Below are positions 24,058-53,251 of a stretch of DNA of 64,000 nt, in pieces (the stretch's first letter is position 1; each line of letters starts with the position of its first letter). The stretch is from Alphaproteobacteria bacterium (lineage in GTDB: Bacteria > Pseudomonadota > Alphaproteobacteria > JABAAW01 > JAHZMA01). Where the stretch lies: assembly GCA_965205905.1 (NCBI GenBank), contig CBDBHZ010000013.1, positions 209,571 through 273,570 of the forward strand, given 5' to 3'. The notes below the pieces were generated by a model. That model saw only the letters and a program-made list of their open reading frames with translations, made no database searches and had not been told where the DNA came from. Made by a program: the position numbers and the translations under genes.

Positions 24058-27000
24058 TCAGCGGAATAATTGCGCCATCGCGCTTGCTAAGTATTTTGGC
24101 ATAATCTTCTGCTTTTTACCCCAATAAATCACAGCATGGAAATTCTGCAATTCTAACAATGCTTCAGGCGCGCAGTTTTCCTCAACTGTTACCGCAACAC
24201 CGCCCATTTCGGTAACATGCGCTACTTGCTGATTCACCGAATCTTTAGCACCCAAACATAAAATCGCACCGCGTGGCACGATACGCCAATGGTTGGTCTC
24301 ACCCGTAACGCTTGGCATGGCTTGTTCTGTAATCAACTTCTCTTGCGCCTGCTGATTGGCATTATCAATGGCTTGCTGTAACGCCGCTATATCAAAATCT
24401 TGTTGCCACTCATCATCGATGGTGATGCGTTCGGTTTTGGCAAAATGCGGGACATAAAGCGGCCCACCTGCTTTAGGGCCAGTGCCTGATAACCCCTCAC
24501 CACCAAAGGGTTGACTGCCAACAATCGCGCCAATCTGATTGCGATTCACATAGATATTGCCCACTTTCAAACGGTTTGCAAGATTTTCAATATGCGCGGT
24601 GATACGGCTATGCAAGCCAAATGTTAAGCCAAAGCCTTTATGGTTAATGTCGCTGATAATAGCATCAATCGCATCGCTTTTGAATGTGGCGATATGCAAT
24701 ACAGGTCCGAAAATTTCTTTTTGTAACTCACCGATGCCACTCACTTTTATCAGGCATGGCGCAATAAAAAAGCCACCATCAGGCGCGTTAATTTGATACA
24801 GCAACTTGCCTTGCGCTTGTTGTTCGGCAATATAATCATCAATATTCTGCTTGGCTTTGCCGTCAATCACAGGTCCAATATCGGTGCTTAACTGACACGG
24901 GTCGCCTAATGTTAATTCATCCATCGCGCCTTTTAGCATCTTTAAAAACGAATCCGCGATTTCCTCTTGTAGATACAAACAGCGCAATGCCGAGCACCGT
25001 TGCCCTGTGGATTGAAACGCCGATACCACCACATCACGCACCGCTTGTTCGGGTAGGGCGGTGGAATCCACAATCATCGCATTTAGCCCGCCTGTTTCGG
25101 CAATCAGGGTGGCATCTGCGCTTAAATAATGCGCCATATTATGGCGGATAATCTTTGCCGTATCGGTAGAACCCGTAAACACCACGCCAGAGATTTTTGG
25201 ATTTTGCGTTAATAATGTGCCAATCACTTTGCCCTCACCAATTATCAGCTGTAACACCGCAGGTGGCACGCCCGCTTTGTGCAGTAACTGCACCGCAATA
25301 AAAGCGGTGAGTGATGTTTGTTCCGCAGGCTTTGCCAATACGCCATTGCCCATCGCTAATGCGGCAGCAATCTGCCCTGTGAAAATGGCGAGTGGGAAAT
25401 TCCAAGGCGATATGGCGGTGAATATGCCCCCAGCAAAATCATCTTGTGATGTGCTATTTATCTTTTCGGCTTCATCAGCATAATAGCGTAAAAAATCTAC
25501 CGCTTCGCGTAATTCACCGATAGCATCAGGCAGCGTTTTGCCCGCTTCTTTGGTTAAAACCGCAAATAATAAACCGAAATTTTCCTCATATAAATCAGCG
25601 GCAATTCGCAAAATCGCCGCGCGCTTGTTGGTGCTGATTTGCCATGCTGTTGCATTATCAATCGCTTTGGTTGCGGTTGGCTTATCGGCATAGATGACGG
25701 TCGCAATTTTCTCACCATTGGCAGGATTATTGACCGCAATCACCTCGCCAGTAACACGCTCACCAGTGGCATTGGCGCCCGCAATGATAGGCGACGCATT
25801 GGGGAGCGCAACATTACGGGCATTATCAATCATGGCAAGCGTTTGTTCATCATTAATATCAAAGCCGCGTGAGTTAATCCGCTTTTCACCAAAAATATCA
25901 CCAAAAATATCAGATGGCTTGACTAAACCATCAGGCATTTTTTGCGTTTCCAGTAACACCATCGGGTTACGCACCATCTGTTCAGGCGTAACGTTTTTAT
26001 CCATGATTTGATGCACAAAAGAAGAGTTCGCGCCATTTTCTAACAGCCGCCGCACCAAATAAGCCAGCAAATCAGGATATGCCCCCACTGGTGCGTAGAT
26101 ACGGCTTTTATGCCCTAATTCTTGCACCATAATATCATGCAATGTTTCACCCATGCCATGCAACCGCTGAAACTCAAAATCGCGGCCGTTCGCCAATGCC
26201 AACACCGCCGCCATCGTATGGGCGTTATGGGTGGCTAATTGCGGATAAAGATAATCGCTATAATCAAATAGTTTTTTCACATTGGCAATATAGCTAACAT
26301 CGGTGGCGGCTTTGGTGGTGAATGCAGGAAAATCGGGCGCGCCTTCAATTTGCGACCATTTCATTTCGCTATCCCAATAGGCGCCTTTCACCAACCGCAC
26401 CATGATTTTGCGCTGATGCTTTTTCGCTAGCCGATAAAGCCAATCCAGCACATAAGATGCCCGTTTGCCATAGGCTTGCACCACCACGCCAAAGCCATCC
26501 CACCCTTGCAAATCTTCCGATGCAAATACGGCTTCGATAATTTTCAGCGATAATACCAGCCTTGCTTGTTCTTCTGCATCAATATTAAGCCCGATATTCA
26601 GGTTTTTTGCATGTTTGGCAAGCGCGTGCATGATTGGCACGATTTCCGCCATCACCCGTTTTTCTTGCGCCACTTCGTAACGCGGATGCAATGCCGAAAG
26701 CTTAACCGATATGCCCGCATTATCAATCACATTATCATGCTGGCACGATGCACCGATGGCTTCAATCGCTTGCTGATAAGATTGATAGTAAAAAGCGGCA
26801 TCTTGCGCGGTGATGGCAGCCTCGCCTAACATATCATAGCTATAGGTAAAGCCTTGCGCCTGATATTGAGAGGAATTTTTGAGGGCTTTGCCGATAGTCT
26901 CGCCCAAAATAAACTGCTTACCCATCTGTTGCATGGCAAGGTTTGCGCCATAACGGATGAAAGGCTTGGCAAGCTGCTTAACGATATTGTTTTGCGTTAA

Positions 27001-27378
27001 TAAATATTGCGCCACACATAAGCCCCTTGTGGTGATATTCACCAAAGCCGATGGCGATGCGCTTAAATGTTGTTGCCAATTAAGGGGGATAATTTTATCG
27101 GCAATCAGCCTATCAATGGTTTTATGATCGGGGGTGCGTAGCATGGCTTCGGCAAGGCACATCAGCGCAACACCTTCATATGTGGATAGGCTATATTGCG
27201 CCAGAAAATACTCCATCAAGCCGTGCTTTTTATGGCTTCGCATTTGCGTAACCCAACCAGCGGCATCATCAGAAATTTTCTGCCATATCTGTGGCGATAA
27301 ATCAAGTTGCGCGCCAAGTTTGGCGATCAAATCATGCTCATTGGCATATTTTGCTTGTAATGTAAAATCATCAACCAT
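24058..27378 (-). CDS. putA: bifunctional proline dehydrogenase / pyrroline-5-carboxylate dehydrogenase
   Basis: 1106 aa with an N-terminal PRODH barrel and a C-terminal aldehyde dehydrogenase domain (catalytic ...GQRCSA). Confidence 0.9.
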   Translation of the reverse strand: MVDDFTLQAKYANEHDLIAKLGAQLDLSPQIWQKISDDAAGWVTQMRSHKKHGLMEYFLAQYSLSTYEGVALMCLAEAMLRTPDHKTIDRLIADKIIPLNWQQHLSASPSALVNITTRGLCVAQYLLTQNNIVKQLAKPFIRYGANLAMQQMGKQFILGETIGKALKNSSQYQAQGFTYSYDMLGEAAITAQDAAFYYQSYQQAIEAIGASCQHDNVIDNAGISVKLSALHPRYEVAQEKRVMAEIVPIMHALAKHAKNLNIGLNIDAEEQARLVLSLKIIEAVFASEDLQGWDGFGVVVQAYGKRASYVLDWLYRLAKKHQRKIMVRLVKGAYWDSEMKWSQIEGAPDFPAFTTKAATDVSYIANVKKLFDYSDYLYPQLATHNAHTMAAVLALANGRDFEFQRLHGMGETLHDIMVQELGHKSRIYAPVGAYPDLLAYLVRRLLENGANSSFVHQIMDKNVTPEQMVRNPMVLLETQKMPDGLVKPSDIFGDIFGEKRINSRGFDINDEQTLAMIDNARNVALPNASPIIAGANATGERVTGEVIAVNNPANGEKIATVIYADKPTATKAIDNATAWQISTNKRAAILRIAADLYEENFGLLFAVLTKEAGKTLPDAIGELREAVDFLRYYADEAEKINSTSQDDFAGGIFTAISPWNFPLAIFTGQIAAALAMGNGVLAKPAEQTSLTAFIAVQLLHKAGVPPAVLQLIIGEGKVIGTLLTQNPKISGVVFTGSTDTAKIIRHNMAHYLSADATLIAETGGLNAMIVDSTALPEQAVRDVVVSAFQSTGQRCSALRCLYLQEEIADSFLKMLKGAMDELTLGDPCQLSTDIGPVIDGKAKQNIDDYIAEQQAQGKLLYQINAPDGGFFIAPCLIKVSGIGELQKEIFGPVLHIATFKSDAIDAIISDINHKGFGLTFGLHSRITAHIENLANRLKVGNIYVNRNQIGAIVGSQPFGGEGLSGTGPKAGGPLYVPHFAKTERITIDDEWQQDFDIAALQQAIDNANQQAQEKLITEQAMPSVTGETNHWRIVPRGAILCLGAKDSVNQQVAHVTEMGGVAVTVEENCAPEALLELQNFHAVIYWGKKQKIMPKYLASAMAQLFR

Positions 27379-27482
27379 CTGATGTCGTCCTTGTTATAGA
27401 GTGGGCTATTGATTTTATCATAGCATAAAAAATGCGAATTGCCTATATGATGTTGGTGATGGGGGTGAGGTTTGCACCCCCG

Positions 27483-27660
27483 CTAGTATTAAGCACAGCG
27501 GGGGGGTTATCGTGGGTTGCACCTTATGAGTATTACACACAAGCGGGGGTTGTTAAGGGGGCATTCGCAAGGGAGCGGACGTAAGTCTCGCGACCGAGAA
27601 GCGAATTCGCGCCCCCTTAAATAATAAAGCCCAACTCCGCCCGCCCTATGTGCTACTCTG
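27483..27660. repeat. MITE-like GC/G-tract palindromic repeat copy (reverse orientation)
   Basis: Contains the core gcggacgtaagtctcgcgaccg and terminal cccccc/gggggg tracts. Confidence 0.7.
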
Positions 27661-27943
27661 CATGGGAACAACGAAATCAGGGTAAAACAATACATTTAGC
27701 ACTTATTTTAACCATAAATCCGAACAAACAAAAAGTTATCCACAGGTTTACTACTTTTTCACAAAGTGTTCTTGATTTGTGTAATAAACTTATGGTAGAT
27801 TAGAAATAAGCCCATTGCGCCCCTCAATAACCGAACCGAATGGCAACCAAAAAACTTCACTATTTTTAATTTCCGCATCATGCGTTTGCGGATAACGTAA
27901 CCTTATGCCCAACTTATGGACATTTTATATAGGAGGACTCATT

Positions 27944-29584
27944 ATGAGTGCTATTGACGTCTTAACCCAAAAACTATCAGGCAGTAACAAGCAAAAAGCA
28001 TGTGATTGTTGCGAAAAACTTGCCAAACGGCAATCTGTCTCACCCAATATCGTGAAAGATGCTTATCAGCAAATCAACAAAAGCGCGCCCAATATCACCG
28101 ATAGGCAGGCATGCGATATGCTGATAACCCTATTCGTTAAGGGCGAGGCTTTATCTACCAAAGAAGAGGAAATCTTAAAGTTTCTTAATCAATCAACCAA
28201 AACCATCACCCAAATATCGCAACCCATGCAGTTTGCGCCCATTTTTAACATTGTGCAGAAAACCAAAAACCAACCAAATTATTTCCGCCCATTAGGTAAG
28301 GTGAATCAGTTTTTCAATCATTTAAGCAACCAAGCCGATTTTAAGAAACTGCTAACGGCGGTCGGCTCTTTATCTCTCACCAAGGAAGAAATCACTGAAT
28401 TGATGGCGGCGCAATATCAGCCAAACTATAGCCCTTCATCACGCACCGATGGGTTAATTAAAGCCATTGATAGAGCGGGAAAGCTTTCGGCACTGCCCGA
28501 AAAAGCGTTTCATAATCTCACCACCCATATCGGCAAAAAGTTTAAGTTTAGCGATATTAATATCAAAAATTTGCAGACTATAGAAAGTGGCAATAAAGGC
28601 AACGATGAATTAAATAATGCACTTTACAACGCCTTTCAGGATAAAAGCAATATTCAATATATGCCGAAAAAAACCAGAGAGCTGTTGCAACCCATCCATA
28701 ATGAGATTCTGAAAGCAAAGATGGAGGATTACACTAAAACTATTGGCACACTTAATGTTTCGCCATCGGTGCATACGCGATTACATGGTTATCAGGCTTT
28801 GTTAATCGATATAGAACAGGGCAAGAAAAAGCCTAGTACGGCTGACCTTGAAAAACTTAATTTGCTATATAATGAATTAAAAAGCCTTGGCAAGCTTGAT
28901 GCCATGCCGAACCGCACGCAAGCCTATCTAGAAAATTACCGTCTGGAACAAGATTTGAAGAAGAAAGCCCCGTTGAATGTTGGTAAATTGCTGGAAAAAT
29001 TAAAACGCGGTGAGACATTGGGAGTTTTTCAAGCTTTTTATCTCAGCAGTCATGCGCCAGATGAGCTTAAAAAACACTGGAAAAATGAAAAAAACCAAAA
29101 ACAATTAGAAACATTATCAAAAGATGTGCGTGATAAGGCGGCAGAAATCAAGAATTTAGATAAATCTGCATTGCTTGAGAGTTTCGAGAAAATCATCGAG
29201 CAAATTCGTGCCGAGCAAGGCAGGGCATCTAACCGCAGATTCTATGTTCCTGCATTGGGCGTTTATATCCAACTTACTGGAAATTTTATGGAATTGCGCT
29301 TCAGGAATAAAGATTTTGGCGGAGTATATAAAGAGACGATGAAGCAAGTAATTAAAGATTCAAAAGATAAAAGTTTGGATGAAATTACCAAAAATCTGCA
29401 ACAATTCAAACTTGTCTATCACAGAGGTTTGGATTTTACGGGTGCCAATCTTAAAACCGATGGCAGTGTGCGCTATATCAAGGATAGTGAGGTTAACCCG
29501 ACAATTTCAAAGGTGTTGGATGTTTCAACGAAAACAACAAGAAGTGGCAAAAAAACCAAAGCCATCACTATTTTAGAAATATAA
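27944..29584 (+). CDS. hypothetical protein (546 aa) with no recognisable domain
   Basis: AGGAGG Shine-Dalgarno 7 nt upstream of the ATG at 27944. The ORF is AT-rich and its stop overlaps the next start. Confidence 0.5.
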   Translation: MSAIDVLTQKLSGSNKQKACDCCEKLAKRQSVSPNIVKDAYQQINKSAPNITDRQACDMLITLFVKGEALSTKEEEILKFLNQSTKTITQISQPMQFAPIFNIVQKTKNQPNYFRPLGKVNQFFNHLSNQADFKKLLTAVGSLSLTKEEITELMAAQYQPNYSPSSRTDGLIKAIDRAGKLSALPEKAFHNLTTHIGKKFKFSDINIKNLQTIESGNKGNDELNNALYNAFQDKSNIQYMPKKTRELLQPIHNEILKAKMEDYTKTIGTLNVSPSVHTRLHGYQALLIDIEQGKKKPSTADLEKLNLLYNELKSLGKLDAMPNRTQAYLENYRLEQDLKKKAPLNVGKLLEKLKRGETLGVFQAFYLSSHAPDELKKHWKNEKNQKQLETLSKDVRDKAAEIKNLDKSALLESFEKIIEQIRAEQGRASNRRFYVPALGVYIQLTGNFMELRFRNKDFGGVYKETMKQVIKDSKDKSLDEITKNLQQFKLVYHRGLDFTGANLKTDGSVRYIKDSEVNPTISKVLDVSTKTTRSGKKTKAITILEI

Positions 29585-30264
29585 TGAAAATAACTGATAA
29601 GATGCGGTTAACCAGTTTTAGGCATCTCTCTCAATCCTTTGTTGTAAAAGGGCAAATCATCAGTAGCACCCATAAAATTGGCTCTGTTATGAAAGATGAT
29701 GGCACAAATGAACATTCCCATATTGAACAAAGAATTGTTGATTTTGCCAAAGTAAGAGAAGCAGTAGGCGCAAATAATAAAGAAATCATTAATGATGCCA
29801 TCATCAATTACCTCAACACACATATTGAAAATAAATGGAAGGAGAGACGAAAAGGTGAGTTTAAGCAATCTGAATTTCTAAAAACAATCAATCCCATGTC
29901 GAATATTGGTGAGAAAGATTTTGTTGGTCTATTTGCGCCATCTAGCAATATTGCCAATCAAATCCGCATCTATGCCAAAAAAGATTGGGATGAACGCGCT
30001 AGTAATATTATCAAAGCCAATAATGCCAACACTGTTGACGAAATTTATAAGGCAATTCATAGTGCCACCTTGCGTGATATACTCACCCTAAAAGCCATGA
30101 TTGATGTGCTATTAAGAATGAAATTGATGTTAGAAACAGTTGGTGAAAAAACTGATTTCTTAAACAAGACCATTCAAAAAGCGCAAAAAACGAAACTGGA
30201 TTTAGAGGATTCTTTTGAAAAAATATTTAAAAACATGAAAATCAAATTCATTGAACAAAAATAA
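29584..30264 (+). CDS. hypothetical protein (226 aa), translationally coupled to the upstream ORF
   Basis: ATAATGA stop/start overlap and an AT-rich sequence. Confidence 0.5.
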   Translation: MKITDKMRLTSFRHLSQSFVVKGQIISSTHKIGSVMKDDGTNEHSHIEQRIVDFAKVREAVGANNKEIINDAIINYLNTHIENKWKERRKGEFKQSEFLKTINPMSNIGEKDFVGLFAPSSNIANQIRIYAKKDWDERASNIIKANNANTVDEIYKAIHSATLRDILTLKAMIDVLLRMKLMLETVGEKTDFLNKTIQKAQKTKLDLEDSFEKIFKNMKIKFIEQK

Positions 30265-30302
30265 AATTTGACAAATTTTTTCCTTTCAACTAAGATGGTA
30301 AG

Positions 30303-30867
30303 ATGAAATATAAAGCATCTTACCATACTTTTTTCACTGTTAGCTATTCTAACATACGTTGTGATATTGCCAGTAAAAAATATTAATGCAACTGACGCTG
30401 AAAAAGCTGATGTGCAACATTTATTTTTTAAAACTTTTTTGGACATGACATATTATAGTCTTGGGCTGAATGATAATATGGATATTGCAAAAGAAATTCT
30501 AAAATTAGAAGATTTAATCGCGCAAGGCGCCAACCCAAATAAAAAATTTGTATTCCCTAGTGACAGTGATGGAGAAAGTTTGGTTACACCTATATCTTAT
30601 ATATTTACGACATGTCGTAATGATCATTACATAGAGGATGCTGGTGGTAAAAATTTTTATTTAGAAATTATAAAATTATTGATTGATAATGGCATAGAGT
30701 GGAATGCTAAAATTTATTACGAAAACGATGATGGCACTTCAGGGTCATATACCATTGCCGATAGAATCAGATGGCTAGAAGAAAATCCGAGCAACAAACC
30801 AGAATGTATCGAAGCGCTAGCTTATGTCAAAACCCACCTCAAAGAAAACAACATCATCATTGAATAA
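30303..30867 (+). pseudogene. secreted short ankyrin-repeat-like protein, paralog 1 (N-terminal frameshift)
   Basis: Conserved promoter and hairpin upstream. The ATG at 30303 is followed by a 1-bp insertion (aaatATaaag versus aaatTaaag). The remaining ORF 30361..30867 retains the ANK-like core and the PECIEALAYVKTHLKENNIIIE tail. Confidence 0.55.
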
Positions 30868-30914
30868 TAAAACCTCGCGGTTGCTCAACACAAAAACCGT
30901 GCGTGTCGCGATAC

Positions 30915-31082
30915 ATTAATATATGGTGGGCTTTGCGGAGTTGGTTTATATATCAAGGGGGGTGCGAACGCGCTTTATCGGTCGCGAGACTTACGTCCGC
31001 TTCCTTGCGCTTTCGGTTTGCCCTTGCACCAATGGCGGGCAAACCTCACCCTTAATAATCCCCCCGCTGTGTTTAATACTGG
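30915..31082. repeat. MITE-like repeat copy
   Basis: atatatggtgggctttgcgg...gcgaacgcgctttatcggtcgcgagacttacgtccgc...ccccccgctgtgtttaatact. Confidence 0.7.
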
Positions 31083-31161
31083 CGGTGGAGTGTATCGCCC
31101 CATACCCCCACGAACAAAAATAAAGTTTGACAAATTTTTTCTTTTCAACTAATATGGTAGG

Positions 31162-31795
31162 ATGAAATTAAAGCATCTTACCATATCTTTTTTAACATTC
31201 GCTATTCTATCATATGTTGTATTTATGGTGATAGAAAATAATGCTGTAATAGAAGCTGAAAAAATGGCAGAAGCTAGAAAAATTGAAAAAGCTCTGATAG
31301 CTGAAAAAATGATAGAAGCTAGAAAAATTGAAAAAGCTAATGTGCAAAATTTATTTGATAGACTTTTTACAGAAACGATACGGTATACTTATGGGCTTGA
31401 TTATGATACCGATATTCCAAAAGCAATTTTAAAATTAGAAAATTTAATTGCACAGGGTGCCAATCCAAATAAAAGAATCATACACGCCGTGGATGGTAGT
31501 GGTTATGTGGATACACCTATATCTTATACTTTTCTTGCATGCAATAATGATAGTTATATAGATGATGCTGATGGTAGAAATTTTTATTTAGAAATTATAA
31601 AGTTATTGATTGATAATGGTGTGGATTGGAATGCTAAAAATTATTATGAGAGCGAAGATACTTCAGGAACAACAAACTATTGCTGACACGCTCAAAAGAA
31701 TGGAAGATGAAGCTGAAAAACGTAACCCAGAATGTATCGAAGTGCTAGCTTATGTCAAAAACCACCTCAAAGAAAATAACATCATCATCGAATAA
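31162..31795 (+). pseudogene. secreted short ankyrin-repeat-like protein, paralog 2 (internal frameshift near 31610-31686)
   Basis: Signal anchor, an EARKIEKA repeat insertion, the ANK-like core, then a frame switch into the conserved C-terminus. Confidence 0.55.
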
Positions 31796-31873
31796 TAACC
31801 GATTATTGGGGTTATTCGCAATCAGTGGTAACAGATATTTGACAAACCTAATTCTATAACTTAATATGGTAAG

Positions 31874-32479
31874 ATGAGAGTAAAATACCATCTTACCATA
31901 TTTTTTTCACTATTCGCTATTCTAGCATATGTTGTATTATTGCCAGTCAAGAATATTAATGCAACTGAAGCTAGAAAAGCTAAGGCAATAGAAGCTGAGA
32001 GAATTGCAAAGGCTAGAGAAGCTGATGTGCAAACTTTTTATGAAATTTTTTTAGATATAACGCAAAGTGGTTATGGAATTGATTCTGATATGTATACTGC
32101 AGAAACAATTTCAAGGTTAGAAACTTTAATTGCACAGGGTGTCAACCCAAACAGGAGTTTTGAACTCCCTAGTGACGGTTATGGAAAAGGCTTTGTTACA
32201 CCTATATCTCATATACTTCTTACATGCACTAATGATAGGTACCTAAATGACGCTGATGATAGAAATTTTTATTTAGAGATTATAAAATTATTGATTGATA
32301 GCGGTGTGAAATGGAATGCTAAAAATTCTTATGATGGCTATCATTATGGTGAATCAGGTGAATCAACCATTGCCGATAGCCTAAGATGGACAGAAGAGAA
32401 CGCGCATAAACCAGACTGTCTCGAAGCGATAGATTATGTCAAAACCCACCTCAAAGAAAATAACATCACGCTAGAATAA
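31874..32479 (+). CDS. secreted short ankyrin-repeat-like protein, paralog 3
   Basis: N-terminal hydrophobic anchor, the ANK-like LIAQGVNPN...TPISHILLTC...EIIKLLIDSGVKWNAKN, and a conserved C-terminus. Confidence 0.6.
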   Translation: MRVKYHLTIFFSLFAILAYVVLLPVKNINATEARKAKAIEAERIAKAREADVQTFYEIFLDITQSGYGIDSDMYTAETISRLETLIAQGVNPNRSFELPSDGYGKGFVTPISHILLTCTNDRYLNDADDRNFYLEIIKLLIDSGVKWNAKNSYDGYHYGESGESTIADSLRWTEENAHKPDCLEAIDYVKTHLKENNITLE

Positions 32480-32525
32480 TAAAACCTCGCGGTTACTCAA
32501 CACAAAAACCGTGCGTTTCTCATCA

Positions 32526-32690
32526 CATTAATATATGGGGGCTTTGCGGTTTAGGTTTTATATATCAAGGGGGGGGGCGAACGCATTAATTTATGGGGGG
32601 CTTTGCGGCATACGCTTTGGCGGTTATGTCCGTAGGACAACCGCCACGCGATGACGCCCCCCATACCCCCCACCGCTGTGTTTAATACTC
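32526..32690. repeat. MITE-like repeat copy (variant internal module, G10 tract)
   Basis: Shares termini with the other copies. Confidence 0.6.
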
Positions 32691-32729
32691 ATATCTAGCT
32701 TGCCTTGATAATTCTTACCTAAATAAAAT

Positions 32730-32790
32730 TTGACAAATTTTTTCCTATAACTTAATATGGTAAGATGAAATTAAAGCATCTTACCATATT
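32730..32790 (+). promoter_or_regulatory. conserved promoter (TTGACA-17-TAATAT) plus a start-codon hairpin of ank paralog 4. The same module sits at 30268-30330, 31127-31195 and 31839-31905.
   Basis: Perfect -35 hexamer, 17-bp spacer and a -10 six to seven nt before the ATG. The inverted repeat atggtaagATG...catcttaccat encloses the start codon. Confidence 0.6.
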
Positions 32791-52789: not shown

Positions 52790-53020
52790 TTACATCATCG
52801 TTTGAAAAGATTTCGAGCGTGGGGCTTAGTAACCTCTTACATAATTCGGTTGCATCAATCGATATTGACGCTTTTTTCGTTACATTGTAATTTGCGTCAA
52901 GGATGCACCGTTCTCAGCTTGGCTGGGAAGCGGTGCTATATGTCCAAGCGCCTTGTTTTTTAATATTGTGCCAAAAAGCGTCGCGCCGTTTTTAATTATG
53001 TAAGCGGTTACTAATTCCCA

Positions 53021-53048
53021 GCTACTAGAGTTTTCTAGTAGCTTTTTT
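53021..53048 (+). terminator. intrinsic terminator hairpin with T-tract
   Basis: gctactagag-ttttc-tagtagc followed by tttttt. Confidence 0.5.
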
Positions 53049-53128: not shown

Positions 53129-53163
53129 CACCCCTCATTATTTTTGATGAGGGGTGTTTTTTT
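53129..53163 (+). terminator. intrinsic terminator hairpin with T-tract
   Basis: cacccctcat-tatttttg-atgaggggtg followed by ttttttt. Confidence 0.6.
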
Positions 53164-53251
53164 GATGGCGGTGTTTGTTGCAGGTGTATAATACATAGGG
53201 CGGTGCATGGGTCGAGATTCGTCAACACAAAAACCATGCCTGCCTCCACAC

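Follow-up and report, generated by a model that had tools for sequence, protein, structure and literature searches.

The 64,000-nucleotide stretch of DNA analysed here, referred to as the window, belongs to an uncultured alphaproteobacterium, has a G+C content of 42% and contains a FlbT homologue. Within it lie four tandem, co-directional small genes, the products of which begin with a hydrophobic anchor or signal and continue as ankyrin-like repeats. The genes had been designated ank paralogs in the original prediction, and at the profile level they are ankyrin-like, the family profile matching designed ankyrin repeats with E = 6e-10, but the match to Pfam Ank fell below the cut-off. The four genes and the gene that precedes them are arranged as follows:

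29584..30264, + strand: upstream gene of 226 aa, co-directional with the paralogs; read-through from it would meet hairpin 1 first
30303..30867, + strand: ankyrin-like paralog 1, frameshifted by an extra A in the loop; the ORF resumes at a GTG at 30361
31162..31795, + strand: ankyrin-like paralog 2, frameshifted near 31683; the C-terminus lies in the ORF 31610-31795
31874..32479, + strand: ankyrin-like paralog 3, intact, 201 aa, with an N-terminal signal or anchor
32765..33328, + strand: ankyrin-like paralog 4, intact, 187 aa

The extra A of copy 1 is apparent when its loop, AAATATAAAG, is set against AAATTAAAG. Promoter and hairpin are intact in both frameshifted copies (1 and 2), which may be pseudogenes or products of faulty assembly. 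Positions 31248-31338 of copy 2 consist of in-frame tandem coding repeats with 18-, 27- and 45-nt periodicity, which specify AEKMxEARKIEKA-like units; related insertions were found in copy 3 and in many homologues, as a variable Lys/Glu/Ala-rich linker after the membrane anchor.

A pattern scan for TTGACA-N15-19-TAWKAT returned exactly four matches in the 64-kb window, at 30268, 31127, 31839 and 32730, all of them on the + strand and all with a spacer of 17 nt. Shuffled sequence gave an expectation of 0.45 matches and reached four in 0 of 100 shuffles, a comparison in which the four promoter copies, being paralogous duplicates, do not count as independent events. The -10 hexamer is TAAGAT in copy 1 and TAATAT in copies 2-4, and the scan thereby bore out the prediction that TTGACA, a 17-nt spacer and TAAGAT or TAATAT are kept in all four copies. 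The ATG had been placed 6-7 nt after the -10; the gap is exactly 6 nt (GGTAAG or GGTAGG) in each of the four window copies, making the A the 7th nucleotide, and is 7 nt in none of them.

The ATG forms the 3' end of one arm of an inverted repeat, ATGGTAAGATG, the complement of which, CATCTTACCAT, lies 9-12 nt downstream in codons 5-8. This 11-bp repeat holding the ATG, which had also been predicted, was confirmed as exact in copies 1, 3 and 4 and as interrupted by one G-T position in copy 2. The 5' arm spans from the inside of the -10 to the G of the ATG, and pairing reaches 13-14 bp in copies 2-4, where it covers most of the -10. The loops of copies 1-4 measure 10, 9, 12 and 9 nt, and a T6-T7 run follows within 1-3 nt of the 3' arm in all four. 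The promoter and hairpin modules are located as follows:

30268..30334, + strand: module 1, with -35 TTGACA at 30268-30273, -10 TAAGAT at 30291-30296 and ATG at 30303-30305
+ strand: module 1 hairpin, with 5' arm 30295-30305, a 10-nt loop, 3' arm 30316-30326 and T6 at 30329-30334
31127..31193, + strand: module 2, with -35 at 31127-31132, -10 TAATAT at 31150-31155 and ATG at 31162-31164
+ strand: module 2 hairpin, with 5' arm ATGGTAGGATG at 31154-31164 (one G.U), 3' arm 31174-31184 and T6 at 31188-31193
31839..31907, + strand: module 3, with -35 at 31839-31844, -10 at 31862-31867 and ATG at 31874-31876
+ strand: module 3 hairpin, with 5' arm 31866-31876, a 12-nt loop (one codon extra), 3' arm 31889-31899 and T7 at 31901-31907
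32730..32795, + strand: module 4, with -35 at 32730-32735, -10 at 32753-32758 and ATG at 32765-32767
+ strand: module 4 hairpin, with 5' arm 32757-32767, a 9-nt loop, 3' arm 32777-32787 and T7 at 32789-32795

The -35 of module 1 starts 3 nt past the stop codon of the 226-aa gene. Folded as RNA, the window hairpins gave -15.0 to -16.8 kcal/mol (z = -4.7 to -6.0), and 0 of 200 shuffles folded as well. When the whole window was searched with the Rfam covariance models, only three tRNAs were returned at the gathering threshold, and nothing relevant was returned between 30150 and 33400 at E <= 1; with no covariance-model match, membership in any Rfam family was ruled out.

The protein family is small, with 27 matches, and its database relatives carry the name 'Alphaproteobacteria bacterium'. 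Seven contigs with usable upstream DNA (two ENA metagenome assemblies) yielded 16 further copies of the module, for a total of 20; the set left out P0002, P0003, P0010 and P0017, and P0009 ends at a contig edge. Only two or three closely related genomes or metagenomes contributed the 20 copies, which therefore represent a narrow lineage. Every copy has TTGACA, a 17-nt spacer (18 nt in one), a TAnnnT-like -10 (TAATAT, TATTAT, TAAGAT, TATGAT, TACGAT, TAAACT or TAGTTT), a 6-7-nt discriminator and an ATG that ends the 5' arm. The invariant TTGACA, the spacing of 17-18 nt and a spacer sequence less conserved than the hexamers are those of a sigma-70-type promoter. Stems range from 9 to 14 bp and loops from 9 to 12 nt, with -9.9 to -16.3 kcal/mol for the stem-loop alone and -10.7 to -17.1 kcal/mol for hairpin RNA including the -10. 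A T6-T8 run begins within 0-2 nt of the 3' arm in 19 of the 20 copies, and a T-rich run is present there in all 20. The stems are of three unrelated sequences, ATGGTAAGATG, ACTAGAAAGATG and AGGGTATGA, each of which starts in or just after the -10 and ends at the ATG:

Type i stem: ATGGTAAGATG / CATCTTACCAT, 17 copies including type ia
Type ia stem: GGC / GCC in place of GGT / ACC, a T-A to C-G double change, at L008:1003, L007:2765 and L007:1855
Type ii stem: ACTAGAAAGATG / CATCTTTCTAGT, before ankyrin proteins of 461-464 aa, with two unrelated loop sequences
Type iii stem: AGGGTATGA / TCATACCCT, before relatives of 308-324 aa

A U.G intermediate of the T-A to C-G change was found at L003:4891. 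Types i and ii both preserve the T-run but read it in different frames, as ATA TTT TTT T (type i) and as AGT ATT TTT TTA (type ii). A covariance model built from the 20 copies (R1) found no further copy in the window or in the related contigs L001-L008, and a protein-profile search of genome, metagenome and viral contig collections found no relatives. A scan of genome and metagenome contigs with the palindrome as a DNA pattern gave 32 matches, about the number that we estimate for chance; these were rejected as unrelated hairpins in unrelated taxa. Promoter context was found at none of the 32, the single upstream TTGACA (L040) being off the promoter spacing.

In start-site selection by sigma-70, the modal start is the 7th nucleotide past the -10. 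In the 17 type i copies and in one of the two type ii copies this nucleotide is a purine, the A of the ATG; in type iii and in the remaining type ii copy the A is approximately the 8th. All 20 copies have ATG as their start codon. Copies 3 and 4 have no usable Shine-Dalgarno sequence (anti-SD duplex of -2.8 kcal/mol), and many other genes of the window have GGAG or AGGAG, with anti-SD duplexes of -6 to -13 kcal/mol. The proposal that transcription starts at the A of the ATG is thus plausible as a prediction, given the promoter geometry, the constant ATG and the missing Shine-Dalgarno sequence. It is likewise plausible, from this predicted start site, that each paralog constitutes an independent leaderless transcription unit. 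A census of the window returned no genes with the strict leaderless promoter geometry other than the ankyrin-like copies; its sole other match, a TTG codon at 26691 on the - strand, was rejected as internal to a 1106-aa ORF (24058-27378). In one of the related contigs (L002:6801-6838), TTGACA-17-TAAAAT-6-ATG stands before an unrelated 96-aa ORF and is not accompanied by a hairpin; on this basis other genes of the lineage may use the leaderless promoter geometry.

A transcript starting at the A of the ATG would hold only the AUG, 3 nt of the 5' arm, and so would have no hairpin. RNA folded from the ATG gave 0 to -4.9 kcal/mol across the 20 copies, no better than shuffles in the two window copies that were compared. 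The original prediction had envisaged an AUG-proximal hairpin on a leaderless mRNA, the two halves of which proved to be mutually exclusive: no single RNA can be leaderless and also contain this hairpin.

Covariation was scored on a 14-bp helix (alignment A3) in which type iii is out of register and therefore counts against the helix. In this alignment 92.1% of cells were paired, compared with 86.6% in shuffles and 30-57% when the partners were slid, and changes on both sides were seen at five pairs (14 cells). The covariation score was 0.183, against 0.090 in shuffles, of which 0 of 500 reached 0.183, and against at most 0.071 when slid. The covarying pairs, alignment columns 5/43, 6/42, 7/41, 9/39 and 11/37, all lie at or upstream of the 3rd nucleotide after the -10. 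The codons CAT CTT ACC ATA TTT TTT were 100% identical at their third positions in the 17 copies of types i and ia, compared with an average third-position identity of about 0.68 over the next 26 codons. Within the arm only one codon change was seen, a non-synonymous one (Thr to Ala), and it is matched by a compensating change in the non-coding 5' arm. Conservation was 0.66-0.68 in the promoter spacer and 0.84-0.95 in the hexamers and hairpin; with the spacer below the elements that flank it, the constraint is specific to the motif and not that of a gene-conversion tract. Three stem sequences, compensatory changes and frozen synonymous sites together indicate selection on structure, and the hairpin is, judging from this comparison of sequences, under selection as a structure.

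Because the covarying pairs lie upstream of any feasible start, the molecule that folds would be either read-through RNA or single-stranded or cruciform DNA. Upstream of about -45 the copies show no sequence conservation (identity 0.24-0.55), and in several of them this stretch is the coding 3' end of another gene; no conserved alternative promoter was found upstream of this point among the copies. Every one of the 20 copies has a co-directional gene ending 0-260 nt upstream of it, and in five cases the stop codon of that gene is 0-10 nt before the -35. In the helix, four G.U cells were counted against one A.C cell. Both strands fold about equally (-15.8 and -15.3 kcal/mol), a result that does not separate RNA from single-stranded DNA. 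The T-run is found on the + strand side only, and in two reading frames, which points to the + strand transcript as the probable folding molecule.

The reading that we favour, and to which we would give about an even chance of being right, is that the hairpin terminates or silences read-through RNA while the leaderless transcript that starts within it escapes. The model proceeds from what was observed, namely geometry, structural conservation and a leaderless RNA that does not fold, and from these we infer the start site, termination and occlusion. With its near-consensus sequence (TTGACA-17-TAATAT), the sigma-70-type promoter would set the start on the A of the ATG, and the gene's own mRNA, lacking the 5' arm, would present an unstructured 5' AUG. 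The hairpin, made of a 5' arm (last bases of the -10, discriminator and ATG) and a 3' arm (codons 5-8), would form only in RNA begun upstream, which here means transcripts reading in from the co-directional gene before it; in such RNA, the hairpin and its U6-U8 run would act as an intrinsic terminator. Should an RNA escape termination, its AUG would still be buried in the stem, and the net outcome would be the expression of each gene solely from its own promoter. For the two full hairpins that were scored, the AUG of the fully transcribed form was about 99% paired at 20-45 °C (P(unpaired) <=0.011).

Compared with all stem-plus-T-run structures of the 64-kb window, on both strands, the four sites rank among the strongest. 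Across the 20 copies the stems are AT-rich and the loops 9-12 nt, and the tail of type iii is weak; a 12-nt loop is also present in the likely true terminator after the 1301-aa gene, at 41786-41813. A terminator discriminant trained on E. coli gave a mixed result, being positive for only 8 of the 20 copies. The stem-plus-T-run scan of the window found no comparable terminator after the last gene of the array. The T-run doubles as codons for Ile-Phe-Phe of the hydrophobic signal segment. Elsewhere in the window, tandem terminator-like hairpins at 53020-53043 and 53129-53156 (+ strand; -13.4 and -19.8 kcal/mol), each followed by T5-T7, occupy the gap before a gene at 53207.

The same palindrome, from -10 to +24, could instead act as DNA, by binding a dimeric repressor or by extruding as a cruciform, and so control the leaderless promoter. 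We regard such a DNA operator as unlikely. Repressor operators classically lie, as this palindrome does, over the -10 and +1, but no regulator gene is conserved beside the arrays, and three arm sequences occur in the same contigs (L003, L004 and L007), so that no single regulator would read them all. The repeat is perfectly palindromic in most copies, yet G.U-type intermediates break the DNA symmetry while keeping the pairing, and the spacing of the half-sites varies from 9 to 12 nt; this same spacer disfavours extrusion of a cruciform, even though both strands fold equally well. A simple palindromic operator with a fixed half-site was rejected, given three arms, spacings of 9, 10 and 12 nt and asymmetric changes of the G.U type. 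A role for single-stranded DNA is also conceivable, in that the hairpin could be a recombination site for duplication or exchange of the paralog cassettes, or a relic of duplication or gene conversion. The copies stand in direct orientation in tandem arrays, a GC-rich repeat (described below) brackets the module, and two of the four genes are frameshifted, all of which would be in keeping with such a history. No recombinase gene lies nearby, however, conservation is motif-specific and not tract-like, and the compensatory changes and three stem types favour selection on pairing over copying; we consider this explanation improbable.

Two further alternatives would have the hairpin act in the gene's main mRNA. 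If that mRNA came from an unrecognised upstream promoter, the hairpin could be a cis-acting translational repressor opened by a trans factor such as a helicase, an sRNA or a protein, as its conserved structure and its burial of the AUG at about 99% pairing probability would allow. This would leave an invariant consensus promoter without a role and would provide no Shine-Dalgarno sequence for use once the stem had opened, and the DNA upstream of about -45 is not conserved (0.24-0.55) and in several copies is the coding end of another gene; we hold it to be distinctly unlikely. The other alternative, raised by the original prediction, is that the hairpin on a leaderless mRNA serves as a translational thermosensor. 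Promoter geometry and hairpin do both exist, but a leaderless RNA with only 3 nt of the 5' arm does not fold, and the covarying pairs occupy positions that would go untranscribed. The full hairpin is itself predicted to be closed at 20-45 °C and so would make a poor thermometer; it is without the mismatches or weak pairs of known RNA thermometers, and even at 80 °C its AUG is predicted to be >79% paired. Thermosensing accordingly did not hold up, and we consider it very improbable.

The proposed termination and silencing of read-through RNA may be compared with several known systems. The shielding of IS10 and IS50 (Tn10 and Tn5) against external promoters, known as fold-back inhibition, was reportedly described by Davis, Simons and Kleckner in 1985, by Krebs and Reznikoff in 1986 and by Schulz and Reznikoff in 1991. 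These elements have their native start within a potential hairpin. RNA made from their own promoter is without the 5' arm and is translated, whereas read-through RNA folds and hides the start codon. The likeness to the present modules is that the predicted native start is inside the hairpin, so that only externally begun RNA would fold over the start codon. The differences are that the mRNA is here predicted to be leaderless, that the 5' arm is the -10 and discriminator itself, that the T-run adds a terminator signature to an AUG-occluding hairpin, and that the genes are tandem ankyrin-like paralogs rather than a transposase. No transposase was found in the ankyrin-like module, and the resemblance to IS10 and IS50 is one of mechanism and not of family.

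In pyrC and pyrD of enterobacteria, said to have been worked out by Turnbough and co-workers, the position of the start decides whether the 5' arm of a hairpin occluding the ribosome-binding site is included in the transcript. The modules share with these genes an occluding hairpin whose 5' arm is in the transcript or not according to the start site. The alternative starts of pyrC and pyrD, however, are 2-3 nt apart in one promoter, and the selected pairs here reach into the -10; start-site switching in the discriminator was rejected as the main explanation for this reason. RNA thermometers (ROSE, fourU) belong to the 5' UTR of leadered mRNAs, and their stems, which are weak or mismatched, melt at 30-42 °C. 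They too place a hairpin over the start region, but the stem here is a perfect one of 11-14 bp, predicted to be mostly closed at 80 °C and absent from the gene's own transcript. Assignment to this class was rejected on two of its defining features, a hairpin in the own mRNA and melting in the physiological range.

Leaderless mRNAs include those of lambda cI from PRM and of Tn1721 tetR, and many are found in Actinobacteria, Deinococcus and Caulobacter. Like these, the present genes have a -10 situated 6-7 nt before an obligatory AUG and no Shine-Dalgarno sequence. To our knowledge, no known leaderless mRNA starts inside a conserved, covarying hairpin, whereas the predicted leaderless start of the ankyrin-like genes is embedded in one.

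In the literature on fold-back inhibition and on leaderless genes in Alphaproteobacteria, only a statement on IS200 was pertinent: its left-end terminator 'protects against impinging transcription' (PMC4513863). That terminator occupies nt 12-34, the start site is at about nt 40, and the native mRNA has its Shine-Dalgarno sequence masked by a separate stem (PMC4513863). As in IS200, a hairpin terminator at or just upstream of the gene start would block outside transcription; in contrast to IS200, where the terminator is upstream of the start, one hairpin here overlaps promoter, start site and first codons. Relative to IS10, IS50 and IS200, the module would be set apart by four features: the predicted leaderless RNA, the -10 and discriminator as a hairpin arm, the combined signatures of terminator and AUG occlusion, and the occurrence in a cellular paralog family.

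Taken as a whole, the module may be a self-insulating leaderless cassette, in which a hairpin of the -10, discriminator and first codons terminates and silences all transcripts but those of its own promoter; we put the likelihood of this a little below even. If it is correct, promoter bases and N-terminal codons would co-evolve. Paired changes of ACC to GCC (Thr to Ala) with GGT to GGC, and of Phe to Ile with TAATAT to TATTAT, were observed. Selection on RNA structure would then extend into both promoter and protein N-terminus, and about 65 nt would combine a promoter, the terminator of the preceding gene, a translational lock against read-through and a leaderless start. Such a module would be a compact natural means of expressing tandem paralogs strictly independently of one another in what is probably a host-associated alphaproteobacterium, would widen the read-through-protection logic of IS10 and IS50 to ordinary cellular gene families and leaderless mRNAs, and would offer a ready-made insulator part for synthetic biology. 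More speculatively, individually controlled, membrane-anchored ankyrin paralogs could matter for host interaction. For annotation, a caution is that a start-codon hairpin beside a promoter may be absent from the gene's own transcript.

The surroundings of the array also contain repeated elements. The 3' end of the 226-aa gene (window 29584-30264, ending in …GAACAAAAATAA) is fused straight to the -35. A relic of this gene lies upstream of copy 2 (31108-31123) and of several copies at related loci (L003:4345-4852; L007:2584-2733), and elsewhere fragments of it are interspersed with ankyrin-like copies, which suggests that the ancestral duplication unit comprised the 226-aa gene, the promoter and the ankyrin-like gene. 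A protein of 559-822 aa is encoded before ankyrin-like arrays at several loci (window 27905-29584; L001:2613-4622; L002:2589-5000; L003:726-3146; L005:2458-4926), so that the whole module would be multi-copy in the lineage. These proteins gave no Pfam match, and NCBIfam, searched with the window copy only, gave none either.

A GC-rich repeat of about 250 bp is present at 30878-31120, 32490-32700 and 33336-33600 on the + strand of the window and, inverted, at 27420-27630. It starts about 7-10 nt past the stop codons of ankyrin-like copies 1, 3 and 4, and the inverted copy is upstream of the 559-aa gene. By these positions the repeats bracket the whole module of 559-aa gene, 226-aa gene and four ankyrin-like genes; the repeat may be a MITE-like element or a module boundary. 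Over 69 nt, the segments at 27495-27563 and 33528-33596 are 100% complementary.
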